The translations under genes and the position numbers were made by a program. Below the pieces are notes generated by a model. It was not told the origin of the DNA, ran no database searches, and worked only from the letters and a program-made list of their open reading frames with translations. This document shows, in pieces, positions 17,191 to 34,486 of a stretch of 34,518 bases of DNA. Origin of the DNA: a virus (Duplodnaviria > Caudoviricetes); the IMG/VR virus record IMGVR_UViG_3300032231_000012, positions 1-34,518 of that record; one strand, written 5' to 3'. Positions within the stretch are counted from its first letter, which is position 1; every line of letters starts with the position of its first letter.

Positions 17191-17243
17191 TCTTATTCCT
17201 CCCATTTAAAGTCCGTCGACAAATTATTTATATAAGTGTTACA

Positions 17244-24890: not shown

Positions 24891-25115
24891 TTATTTTTTA
24901 AGTAATTTACATATTTCACACATAATATCTTCACATATTTGTTCATCCATTGTAGGATCATTAGTAATTTCTAAATAACATTTTTTACAAAGATGAAGTT
25001 TTTGATTTCCTATTGAAACAATATTTAAAAATTCTAGTTCTAAAATATTAATTTCATCAATGTTATACTCTGACTTTTTATCACATCTTTCACATTCAAC
25101 TAAATAACTAATCAT
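24891..25115 (-). CDS. Cys-rich hypothetical protein
   Basis: CERC..HLCKKC..CEIC; GGAGG RBS before MISYL. Confidence 0.65.
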   Translation of the reverse strand: MISYLVECERCDKKSEYNIDEINILELEFLNIVSIGNQKLHLCKKCYLEITNDPTMDEQICEDIMCEICKLLKK

Positions 25116-25257
25116 GAACTCTGCCTCCTTCCTTTGTTCTTTTATAAGTTTCCCAAGCATTTCTAATTAACCTATTAATATTAACTCCAGTAGTTTCCTT
25201 TTCTTTTTGAATAGCTTCATAGATATCAGCTGGAATTTTTACAGATTTGTTTTTCAT
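25108..25257 (-). CDS. 49-aa ribbon-helix-helix-like regulator (not in ORF track)
   Basis: MKNKSVKIPADIYEAIQKEKETTGVNINRLIRNAW; AAGGAG RBS. Confidence 0.7.
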   Translation of the reverse strand: MKNKSVKIPADIYEAIQKEKETTGVNINRLIRNAWETYKRTKEGGRVHD

Positions 25258-25286: not shown

Positions 25287-25315
25287 ATTTTATACTACTT
25301 TTTACTACTGATCAA
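25287..25315 (-). promoter_or_regulatory. Sigma-A promoter of the Rep2 operon with operator-like repeats
   Basis: TTGATC-17 bp-TAAAAT; the spacer holds AGTAGTA twice. Confidence 0.65.
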
Positions 25316-25371
25316 CTCTAAAACAAAAATAAATAAAAATAGGTCTAAAGTCCTATATACAGATATGTTAA

Positions 25372-25404
25372 AATGAATTTAAAGTAAATTTTGGAGGGAT
25401 ATTA
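25372..25404 (+). repeat. 33-bp promoter/RBS leader, copy 1
   Basis: AATGAATTTAAAGTAAATTTTGGAGGGATATTA, identical to 26030-26062; overlaps an extended -10 TGTTAAAAT. Confidence 0.9.
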
Positions 25405-25406
25405 AA

Positions 25407-25583
25407 ATGTATGAATTATTAAAAAATCTTTATGTAGAAATAGAGAAAGTTCAAGATGAAATAGAAACCAAGTATCATTATGATACGACACTATGGGAAG
25501 AAGCAAGGAAAAGTTTATATCCTTTAAAAGTTAATTTAAGTTTTACAAAAAATGAAATAAATAAAATATTAAAAATGCTTTAG
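25407..25583 (+). CDS. 58-aa helical hypothetical protein (not in ORF track)
   Basis: MYELLKNLYVEIEKVQDEIE...NKILKML; GGAGG RBS. Confidence 0.7.
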   Translation: MYELLKNLYVEIEKVQDEIETKYHYDTTLWEEARKSLYPLKVNLSFTKNEINKILKML

Positions 25584-25628
25584 AATGTGGTATCATTAGA
25601 TAAATACTATATTGGAGGTTAGAAAATA

Positions 25629-26003
25629 ATGAAAGAACATAATGCAGAAGAGTTGAATACGATACAAAAAAGAAATAAATTAAATAATGTATCAAGATAC
25701 GGAGAAGTTGGACCTGGTGGAGCTTATCATAATTATTGTGTTATAACAGATAATTTATGCGGTAATATTGTTGATATTAAGTTTCAAAAAGGAGCTAGAC
25801 ATGAGCCATACAGCGTTTCTGGAGTTTTAGATGTAGATTTATTAGAAATAGTTAGGGATAGGCTTTCAAGTTTCCAACAAGGAGATTTTAAGACAAGAGA
25901 AAATGCAATAGCTCTAACACATATTGAAGAAGCTTTATTGTGGATGAATAAAAGAGTTGAAGATAGAGCAGAAAGGAATGTTCTAGGAACAAACCAAAAA
26001 TAG
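25629..26003 (+). CDS. tad1: Tad1-family anti-defence sponge (Thoeris/CBASS signal sequestering)
   Basis: TIQKR.KLN.V...GPGGAYH.Y...IKFQKGAR...[46 protein letters not shown] closely matches clostridial Tad1 as I recall it. Confidence 0.9.
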
Positions 26004-26029
26004 TCGCCTTTTAACTGTTGTTTTGCTAG

Positions 26030-26062
26030 AATGAATTTAAAGTAAATTTTGGAGGGATATTA
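26030..26062 (+). repeat. 33-bp promoter/RBS leader, copy 2
   Basis: Identical to 25372-25404; overlaps an extended -10 TGCTAGAAT. Confidence 0.9.
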
Positions 26063-26235
26063 TGAAAAAATATTTAGGAGTTGCAGAGCCAATGAGTTTA
26101 GGGGAATATAACAAATTTAAAGGTTGGACTATTCCAAAAAATGAGGACCCCGAGACTGAAGGATATAAAGTTAAATATTCGGATGGTTATATATCTTGGA
26201 GTCCAAGAGAAGTTTTTGAAAAATCTTATAATTAA
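26062..26235 (+). CDS. 57-aa stand-alone 'SWSP' domain protein (not in ORF track)
   Basis: MKKYLGVAEPMSLGEYNKFKGW...EGYKVKYSDGYISWSPREVFEKSYN; homologous to the N-terminus of the next gene. Confidence 0.8.
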   Translation: MKKYLGVAEPMSLGEYNKFKGWTIPKNEDPETEGYKVKYSDGYISWSPREVFEKSYN

Positions 26236-26264
26236 AAAAATAAAAGGTAAATAAGGAGATTTTT

Positions 26265-26732
26265 ATGGAAAAATATTTAGGAGTTAAATTGATTGAAGCT
26301 GAACAAAAGACACACGGAGAGTATACAAAAATCAAATATTGTGAGAGTAATCCCATTAACACTGAATTTTCAAAAGAAAATGTCAATAGTGCTGGTTACA
26401 TGGTTAAGTATGACAATAATTATATATCTTGGAGTCCTAAAGATGTTTTTGAAAAAGCTTATTTTAAACTTGAAAAAACTAATAACACAATATGTCAAAC
26501 CGATGTTGATTTATTTATAAAAGATGTAAAATCAATCAAACAAGGTGAAAAAACAACGGTTACAACTGTTACTTTAATAAACGGTTTTGAAATATTTGAA
26601 GCTTCTAGCTGTGTTGACCCTGATAATTTTGATATGAGTTTAGGAGAACAAATTTGTTTAGGAAAAATTAAAGATAAAATATGGAATCTGTTAGGTTTTT
26701 TATTACAAACAGGTGTTGCTGGTATAAAATAG
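26265..26732 (+). CDS. SWSP domain fused to a Phage gp49/66-like domain (candidate Acb4-type sponge)
   Basis: N-terminal KYLGVKLIEAE..YISWSPKDVFEKAY; C-terminal TTV..TL.NGF.....SSCVDP.NFD...G..IC...I..KIW.L.GFLL. Confidence 0.75.
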   Translation: MEKYLGVKLIEAEQKTHGEYTKIKYCESNPINTEFSKENVNSAGYMVKYDNNYISWSPKDVFEKAYFKLEKTNNTICQTDVDLFIKDVKSIKQGEKTTVTTVTLINGFEIFEASSCVDPDNFDMSLGEQICLGKIKDKIWNLLGFLLQTGVAGIK

Positions 26733-26796
26733 TCACATTTTAGGTGGCTTTTGTGCTATAATAATACTATGCTTATGTTTTTTGATATAACTAAAT

Positions 26797-26838
26797 AAAG
26801 AAAAGACTAGTGCTTTCAGGTCACTAGCCTTTTTTTTG
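26797..26838. terminator. Bidirectional terminator between convergent units
   Basis: AAAAGACTAGTG...CACTAGCCTTTTTTTT with A and T tracts on both sides. Confidence 0.8.
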
Positions 26839-26843
26839 CAGTA

Positions 26844-26888
26844 AAATGCCCCTGTAAGCCATTCGACTAATAGCTTACAAGAGCATTT
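26844..26888 (-). other. 20-bp RNA stem-loop
   Basis: On the minus strand all 20 positions pair (3 G-U wobbles) around a 5-nt loop. Confidence 0.7.
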
Positions 26889-27020
26889 CATTCACACAAT
26901 AAATGATATTTTTTTAAGTTGCATGATTACTTTGTTATTATAACACTTCTTTTATTATTTTTCTGTCATCTACAATCGAAAATAAATCTGATATTAACTC
27001 ATTAAATTCATCTCTATTCA

Positions 27021-33367: not shown

Positions 33368-34486
33368 ATGATTAAATTTTTAAGTTACTTAGGATTTTTG
33401 GGTAGTTGGTATGTTAGTTTTCTCCTTGCATCTACTTTGGCCAACACCAAAACAGATTATGTAGTAGCATTTATTTTTACATCAGTGATGCAGTTTTCAA
33501 GTTTTTATTTTTTCAAGAAAGGAAATGAGAATCAGAAGTATTTTTATATTGCAGGCGTGTTATTCGCTATAAGTATCTTGGGCACAATGTGTTATCAGCT
33601 TTCCATACACGACCAAGCGCAGAACGAAATGATAGTAAATTCCGACGAATATCAAAAGCACCAAGATAGTCTATCTAATCAAAAAGAGTTAATAGCAGAC
33701 ATGAAAGCAAGCAGAGAATCGTTAATACTATCATACAATGAGCAAGTTGAAAGCCTTGTGTCACAGAAGAATTCTATGCCAGAGAATTATATCACAAGGA
33801 AAGCACAAGTCGACACCAAAATAAATGCAGTTAAACAAGAATTATCAGATAAGCTTGAAATGTTAAACAACTCTTTAATCACACAGTCAAATGAATTAAA
33901 AGAGTTGAATAACACCAATATAGTTACTACTAATCTAAGGTACACCAAGGGGTATCTCGGTATATCTAGTATTATAGCAGATTTTTTCAACATTAACAAA
34001 GAATTAGTAGTGCTATTCATACAGTTTGTAATCGCAGTTACATTTGAGGCAACCGCAGTTGTGCTTCATGTGTCTCTCAATCCACTAGATATAATTGAAA
34101 ATAAAAAGGAGCGTGTTTTTAAAAATGCAAAAATTAGAAAAGGTGTTTTGGATATCCATCGTAGTAATAGACCTAGGAATGATAACACTAGCAGTGGTGA
34201 AATTATGGCAATACCTAATGTAGACCTAAAAAAAAAAGAAATTTCGCCTAAAAAAATTGAAACAAAATCTTATAAAATTAGTGACATAGACGTGAAAAAA
34301 TACAGAAACGCAATGGAGCAAACGCAGTCGGACACATATTGCGTAGGGTATCGCAAAATTTCAAAAATCGCAGGTTTGACGGACTCGAAAGGTAGGCAAA
34401 TATTTGAACATCTTAAGCAAATTGGCATCATAGAAACAACCCAAAATGGTACTAAAATAATTAAGTTTCAAAAAAAGGTGGTGTAG
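33368..34486 (+). CDS. Membrane protein: 3 TM, coiled coil, TM, C-terminal winged-helix-like domain
   Basis: Hydrophobic segments flank a long heptad region; C-terminal GYRKISKIAGLTDSKGRQIFEHLKQIGII. Confidence 0.8.
   Translation: MIKFLSYLGFLGSWYVSFLLASTLANTKTDYVVAFIFTSVMQFSSFYFFKKGNENQKYFYIAGVLFAISILGTMCYQLSIHDQAQNEMIVNSDEYQKHQDSLSNQKELIADMKASRESLILSYNEQVESLVSQKNSMPENYITRKAQVDTKINAVKQELSDKLEMLNNSLITQSNELKELNNTNIVTTNLRYTKGYLGISSIIADFFNINKELVVLFIQFVIAVTFEATAVVLHVSLNPLDIIENKKERVFKNAKIRKGVLDIHRSNRPRNDNTSSGEIMAIPNVDLKKKEISPKKIETKSYKISDIDVKKYRNAMEQTQSDTYCVGYRKISKIAGLTDSKGRQIFEHLKQIGIIETTQNGTKIIKFQKKVV

Follow-up and report, generated by a model that had tools for sequence, protein, structure and literature searches.

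A plus-strand island in a siphophage genome

Do the four small genes that run against their surroundings in this phage genome form an island directed against nucleotide-signal immunity, and are its uncharacterised members candidate new inhibitors, as a sequence-only reading had proposed? The window, i.e., the complete stretch of 34,518 nucleotides analysed here, represents a whole linear virus record with a completeness of ~60% as estimated by CheckV. Its minus strand encodes a siphophage gene set (terminase, SPP1-type portal, minor capsid, scaffold, major head, tail tape measure, endolysin), together with a DnaD-like initiator, an ERCC4 nuclease and a Rad52/Erf annealing protein. The GC content of the window of 31% and the clostridial origin of the closest relatives of the island make a Firmicute a likely host. 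No integrase was found among the genes scanned in the window, and the search for relatives of the ERCC4 gene for synteny comparison yielded none. Plus-strand genes were also observed elsewhere. A block at 165-2455, after the endolysin gene, carries an HTH repressor and a replication-initiator-like gene, the N-terminal half of which matches Bacillus plasmid proteins at 45-47%; this block may be read as a lysogeny module, a plasmid module or flanking DNA. At 33368-34486 a plus-strand gene for a 372-aa orphan lies against the local orientation, with no family above cut-off.

The inverted arrangement described before was found in the open reading frames: the genes flanking the island lie on the minus strand, while ORF1 (25407..25583), ORF2 (25629..26003), ORF3 (26062..26235) and ORF4 (26265..26732) lie on the plus strand, and the GC skew turns positive across the block. 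A GGAG(G) ribosome site precedes each of the four ORFs at a distance of 10-15 nt. The island was matched letter for letter by three contigs of one sequencing run (X1), which may represent the source sample and would then not be independent of the window; their depths were 9.0, 11.3 and 10.6. This match makes an assembly slip in ORF3 less likely. All three contigs break at the 39-nt repeat described below. A second run (X2), in which the stretch is represented by short pieces only, was left out.

Promoter-like sites, a direct repeat and terminator-like hairpins

The three extended -10 sites reported by the sequence-only reading were present exactly as placed, TGTTAAAAT at 25366, TGGTATCAT at 25588 and TGCTAGAAT at 26024. 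We are aware of the fact that the underlying pattern TGNTANNAT occurs often in the AT-rich window (65 matches versus 43.9 expected from shuffles), so that a single match means little. Using a start 30-55 nt upstream of the gene as criterion, a -10 site was found for 3 of the 4 island genes and for 4 of the 49 other genes (Fisher p=0.006, a post hoc and inflated value, as the pattern was drawn from these very sites). The distance to the three island genes is 38-41 nt, and ORF4 is without a -10 site of its own. We infer that the three sites are promoters.

The sites at 25366 and 26024 belong to one 39-nt direct repeat with 95% identity between its copies, of which there are two only, with 0 expected. 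Copy 1 (25366..25404, plus strand) comprises the extended -10 box, leader and ribosome-binding site of ORF1, copy 2 (26024..26062, plus strand) those of ORF3, and the two bracket a unit of 658 nt with ORF1 and tad1. The tad1 control site (25588..25618, plus strand) consists of an extended -10 box and a ribosome-binding site. An exact match to the repeat was absent from the viral contigs searched. Metagenomes gave 8 matches, 2 of which were the record of the window itself; only the match in locus L327 stands in leader position. There, at 1491-1526, the leader and ribosome-site motif of the island precede an unrelated gene for 202 aa. A literature search on islands of promoter cassettes returned nothing specific.

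A fourth extended -10 box, TGCTATAAT, lies at 26754..26762 on the plus strand with no gene downstream; it is preceded by a junction motif (repeat D8) that also follows tad1. The interval 26726-26837 can be read as an emptied cassette or as a putative RNA of ~70 nt. Rfam gave no family above threshold over this interval, and three sub-threshold matches over the terminators were taken as chance. The terminator said to close the island was found as a hairpin followed by U8 at ~26805..26837 on the plus strand (-15.2 kcal/mol, z -2.9), which a simple terminator scan does not list. It stands back to back with a strong terminator-like hairpin of the converging early genes at 26842..26890 on the minus strand (z -8.4). 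On the other side, a promoter-like site at 25287..25315 on the minus strand, belonging to the ribbon-helix-helix gene 25108-25257, is divergent from the island. The minus-strand hairpin and the divergent promoter-like site would insulate the island on both sides.

ORF2 belongs to the Tad1 family

By PDB sequence search, residues 6-124 of the 124-aa protein ORF2 matched the CbTad1 structures with an E-value of 8e-45 and an identity of about two-thirds, while the score against PF24729 was slightly below the cut-off (25.6 versus 27 bits). The pocket contacts of Tad1 are named in 10.1101/2022.05.03.490397 and 10.1101/2023.11.15.567273, the accessible parts of which describe hexamers that bind gcADPR as well as cyclic di- and trinucleotides. 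The gcADPR/dinucleotide contacts were identical in ORF2 at 11 of 11 positions (H29, G55, R57, R78, F82, F87, N92, R109, R113, G120, N122), both trinucleotide contacts (R90, T97) were identical as well, and so were Q8, L13 and L119 of CbTad1; for all of these a one-residue numbering offset was used, chosen since the letters of all named residues then agreed. By this alignment ORF2 is a Tad1 family member, and it would bind signals like the published Tad1 proteins. As a side observation, a 649-aa ORF of another locus (L107:911-2860) ends in a Tad1 domain.

ORF4 combines an Acb4 domain with a further N-terminal domain

Residues 77-149 of ORF4 (155 aa) matched PF13876 with 77.3 bits at a cut-off of 27, a family defined as Acb4 in 10.1101/2024.12.30.630793. 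A predicted model of ORF4 (pLDDT 92) retrieved the SPO1 Acb4 structure 9e4w as top match in both fold searches, with an E-value of 2e-4 in Foldseek and, in VIA, with Z 8.0 and an rmsd of 2.8 over 75 aligned residues, the next match having Z 5.9. As in 9E4W, the model shows a three-strand core and a long C-terminal helix. The guanine-pocket residues K36, F48 and E49 of SPO1 Acb4 were identical in ORF4, as was F62, while V56, N63 (a backbone contact) and I66 were similar; the adenine-pocket residues were identical or similar throughout. Three phosphate contacts (Y57, T70, K81) differ, so the ligand preference of ORF4 may differ from that of SPO1 Acb4. As far as the accessible text of the Acb4 study goes, the tetramers bind cGAMP-type dinucleotides (10.1101/2024.12.30.630793), and ORF4 would bind dinucleotides in a similar manner. 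Alignment and model agree that ORF4 is an Acb4 family sponge, with an additional N-terminal domain of ~60 residues (approximately residues 1-66), termed domain X here. In the homologue table of 10.1101/2024.12.30.630793 the motif of this N-terminal domain occurs 37 times, and in the rows examined it lies within proteins of the two-domain build of ORF4; since such proteins are already listed, the architecture is not new.

Domain X is a common fusion partner of sponges

ORF3 and the N-terminus of ORF4 represent the same domain, with 53% identity. Domain X gave no Pfam match, and PDB sequence searches with it were empty. Using a profile of 35 sequences, 5071 representatives clustered at 50% identity were found at E<=0.001. 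Pfam typing of the best 150 of these left 81 without a family and assigned one to 69. In 68 of the 69 this was a sponge family, namely Tad2 in 35, Sequestin in 20, Acb4 in 17 (including ORF4) and Acb2/Tad1 in 3, with seven proteins carrying two sponge families; the remaining protein carried WDGH. At the level of genomes, the best 80 of 151 loci comprised 72 with a sponge fusion, 7 lacking one and 1 without a whole ORF; one of the 7, locus L200, is Tad2 by Pfam. These fractions are biased upward, as fusion genes supplied the seeds and typing was limited to the best-ranked matches. With a local profile, four domain X proteins were identified as Tad1 fusions. Protein P0212, the sole match above the cut-off of PF24729, is one that we take to be Acb2-like. 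In published tables, the domain X motif was also found 198 times for Sequestin and in two rows for Lockin (PMC12265669, Tal 2025), and one row for Tad2 in PMC12393519 contains it as well. The fusion partners comprise Tad1, Tad2, Acb2-like, Acb4, Sequestin, Lockin and RyR Tad, i.e., all but one of the eight sponge families described. Domain X is also encoded alone, and both stand-alone and tandem X-X forms were found, the tandem proteins P0123, P0160, P0228 and P0239 being without Pfam family. In other cases (P0143; L199:2291-3022; L229:2180-2695; P0144/P0153/P0188/P0251) domain X was observed fused to WDGH, to DUF6275 plus Tad1, or to unnamed domains; by the argument of fusion, these are candidates for additional proteins directed against defence.

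The published relative of domain X is part of RyR Tad. Residues 4-64 of gp68 aligned with the domain X profile with an hhalign probability of 97.5 and an E-value of 6e-12, and ORF3 alone matched the N-terminal domain of gp68 with 42% over 50 aa (E 2e-7). These alignments show homology between domain X and the RyR Tad N-terminal domain. According to the accessible part of 10.64898/2026.06.04.730250, the fold of this gp68 domain is without known function and often forms a single ORF, its first strand is swapped between the chains of the crystal dimer, no activity of the N-terminal fragment alone was apparent against type I Thoeris, and the other domain is the one that holds the ligand. The screen that led to Sequestin used fusions between Pfam families only, as described in the accessible part of 10.1101/2025.07.12.664507; domain X, having no Pfam family, was invisible to it, and domain X motifs were absent from the screen table of that paper. 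Our literature search, which covered mostly papers outside subscription and some only in part, found domain X nowhere named as a general sponge partner.

Tad2 homology was considered for ORF3 and rejected: ORF3 gave no PF11195 match or other Pfam match, and the profile-profile probability was 0.2. The model of the gapped ORF3 had no Foldseek match at E<=0.001 and a best VIA match of Z 3.5, results that point neither to a known fold nor to a new one; in Foldseek, SPO1 Tad2 appeared at rank 9 (E 1.3, TM 0.47). Kinship of domain X to the N-terminal domain of the L229 protein (probability 0.5) was also unsupported.

ORF3 is probably a damaged copy, and ORF1 is an orphan

ORF3 (57 aa) consists of domain X alone. 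Among 265 domain X proteins it is the only one in which four residues of the first strand are missing. The gap includes a lysine that is kept in 248 of the 249 regularly spaced copies, while the remaining 15 of the 265 are irregular or were missed by the pattern. The domain X of ORF4 retains the complete first strand. Judged by its N-terminal position, the strand with the gap is inferred to correspond to the swapped strand of gp68. Moreover, ORF3 ends one residue past the motif, without a C-terminal tail, while 49 of 66 short homologues, some of which may be contig fragments, have 12-19 residues more. In a domain X tree of 46 rows and few columns, ORF3 grouped (98/88) with longer proteins and with Tad2 or Acb4 fusions, apart from ORF4; due to this separate placement ORF3 is not a copy of ORF4. 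These features suggest that ORF3 is probably the damaged remnant of a gene for a fusion of domain X to a sponge. Its short end branch (0.075), intact frame and own promoter-like site would also fit a working gene. The proposal that the uncharacterised members are candidate new inhibitors was overstated, with ORF4 belonging to a published family and ORF3 probably being a remnant; for ORF3 as a new inhibitor, the negative result of the homologous gp68 domain alone against type I Thoeris points in the same direction.

ORF1 (58 aa) matched no family in Pfam or PHROGs and reached sub-threshold matches only in NCBIfam. Relatives were absent from the viral contigs, the protein collection and the cultured phages searched, and the top score in the Atlas (0.77) was at noise level. 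The gene has a GC content of 22%, and a ribosome site and a promoter-like site are present. In its small size ORF1, like domain X, is in line with the class of phage sponges. Its sole tie to immunity is its position, within the repeat-bounded unit with tad1. The claim that the island targets nucleotide-signal immunity is supported by ORF2 (Tad1) and ORF4 (Acb4).

An empty site in the head operon suggests relocation of ORF4

A close relative of the phage was found in locus L002 (portal 77%, minor capsid 74%, scaffold 63%), and it also holds the best match to ORF4 (62%), located between minor capsid and scaffold. In the window the corresponding site at 17206..17243 on the minus strand, a junction before the scaffold gene common with L002, contains no gene. 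The filled site (L002:2741-3385) carries a 62-aa orphan beside the X-Acb4 gene; a Sequestin-like gene was observed before the portal gene of the same locus. In the tree, the X domains of ORF4 and its L002 orthologue pair at 95/87. Other clostridial phages also have X-Acb4 genes in the head region, some with Tad1 beside them, and genes for X-sponge fusions stand in the head operons of L002, L101, L102 and L163. The simplest reading is that ORF4 moved from the head operon into the separately promoted block, and the same picture would result if the head-operon gene had been lost and a related gene acquired independently. Such a move probably brought ORF4 under host-type promoters and would allow its early expression.

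The sequence-only reading had further relied on a tendency of anti-defence genes to cluster. Tad1 was indeed co-located with other sponges in L005, L008, L102, L106, L163 and L203, adjoining an X-Acb4 gene in the first five of these, but such clustering was uncommon: a second sponge within ~2.5 kb was found in 2 of 59 Tad1-anchored loci versus 0 of 80 DnaD-anchored control loci (p=0.18, not significant), using home-built profiles that cover only the sponge families in hand.

A proposed two-sponge module and the possible roles of domain X

Taken together, we propose with a probability of about 0.7 that the block represents an early-transcribed counter-defence module with two sponges, in which ORF3 is a damaged remnant and ORF1 is cargo. 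The RNA polymerase of the host with its primary sigma factor would transcribe the block from the predicted promoters on phage entry. Oligomers of Tad1 (ORF2) and of X-Acb4 (ORF4) would bind gcADPR and cyclic oligonucleotides ahead of the effectors, so that the alarm nucleotides of Thoeris and CBASS would be soaked up. The repeat-bounded unit of ORF1 and tad1 may have been gained, or may be able to drop out, by recombination. Domain X would mainly serve as a strand-swapping dimerisation module on sponges, a role that, taken as pure dimerisation, does not explain how common the stand-alone form of domain X is.

The frequency of fusions leads to another view of domain X, namely as an unrecognised sponge for a signal of, e.g., Pycsar, type II/IV Thoeris or type III CRISPR. 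In this view ORF4 would combine two sponges in one protein, and ORF3 would add a third one that possibly still works. Sequestin was found by the same fusion logic that 68 of 69 Pfam-typed proteins and 72 of 80 loci would provide here, and the stand-alone and tandem X-X forms and the invariant aromatic and polar residues present in the domain are in line with it. We nevertheless regard this as rather unlikely, given the inactivity of the gp68 N-terminal fragment against type I Thoeris, with the ligand in the other domain, the upward bias of the fusion fractions, and the loss of the near-invariant lysine from ORF3. As a portable adaptor, domain X might instead build mixed sponge assemblies or tether them to a phage or host structure, and stand-alone copies such as ORF3 might cap or tune these assemblies. 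The strand exchange seen between the chains of crystallised RyR Tad, the mostly N-terminal position in fusions with partners of differing oligomeric states, the many X-sponge genes in head operons, and the position of ORF3 directly before ORF4, with one promoter-like site for both, are compatible with such a role. It appears quite improbable to us, as partners work without domain X (the gp68 C-terminal fragment; SPO1 Acb4, CbTad1) and part of the would-be swapped strand is missing in ORF3. The broader proposal that domain X is either a new sponge for an unassayed signal or a universal strand-swapping hub for mixed multi-signal sponges is put forward tentatively, with the odds somewhat against it.

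Compatible with the two-sponge module, and with roughly even odds in our estimate, the island may be a general cargo or moron site that holds sponges by chance, in which case ORF1 and the empty fourth cassette would be unrelated to nucleotide immunity. The AT-rich ORF1 without relatives, the unrelated gene behind the island leader in L327 and the fact that most Tad1 genes are without a sponge neighbour speak in its favour. Against it stand the assignment of three of the four island genes to families of sponges or linked to sponges, and the enclosure of ORF1 together with tad1 by the two repeat copies.

For the two-sponge module as preferred here, the two sponge families would together cover Thoeris and CBASS signals, and the pair of filled and empty sites suggests the transfer of a sponge gene out of a late structural operon into a block with promoters of its own. 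The lead to follow is the domain X family, rather than ORF3 or ORF1. Finding the ligand or partner of domain X could uncover a new immune signal or a general rule of sponge assembly, and intact stand-alone homologues are better suited than ORF3 for probing it. Domain X also provides a hook for finding further inhibitors by fusion; if its reading as a novel sponge or hub is true, WDGH, DUF6275 and the unnamed partner domains would be further anti-defence proteins.

Comparison with known anti-defence systems

ORF2 aligned with CbTad1 (PDB 7UAV/7UAW/8KBE) over its whole length, with the named contacts common to both; it differs by a shorter loop before the fourth strand and by its location within a promoter cassette. 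With SPO1 Acb4 (PDB 9E4W; 10.1101/2024.12.30.630793), ORF4 shares the fold and the guanine pocket, whereas the N-terminal domain X is added and the three phosphate contacts are changed. RyR Tad (Pectobacterium phage CB1 gp68) has an N-terminal domain homologous to ORF3 and to the N-terminus of ORF4. Domain X is found here alone or on Acb4, in contrast to the gp68 copy, which is part of RyR Tad; the accessible part of 10.64898/2026.06.04.730250 makes no mention of fusions of this domain to other sponge families. Published sponge fusions, as far as described in the accessible part of 10.1101/2025.07.12.664507, join sponge domains in one protein. Overall, the island is an example of a known strategy, the multi-sponge anti-defence island. 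It resembles the anti-signalling hotspot of N4-like phages (10.64898/2026.06.04.730250, accessible part), likewise a compact multi-gene island against Thoeris and CBASS, and is distinguished from it by its Firmicute-type siphophage background, its inverted and terminator-insulated block, its repeated promoter-leader cassettes and the signs of relocation.
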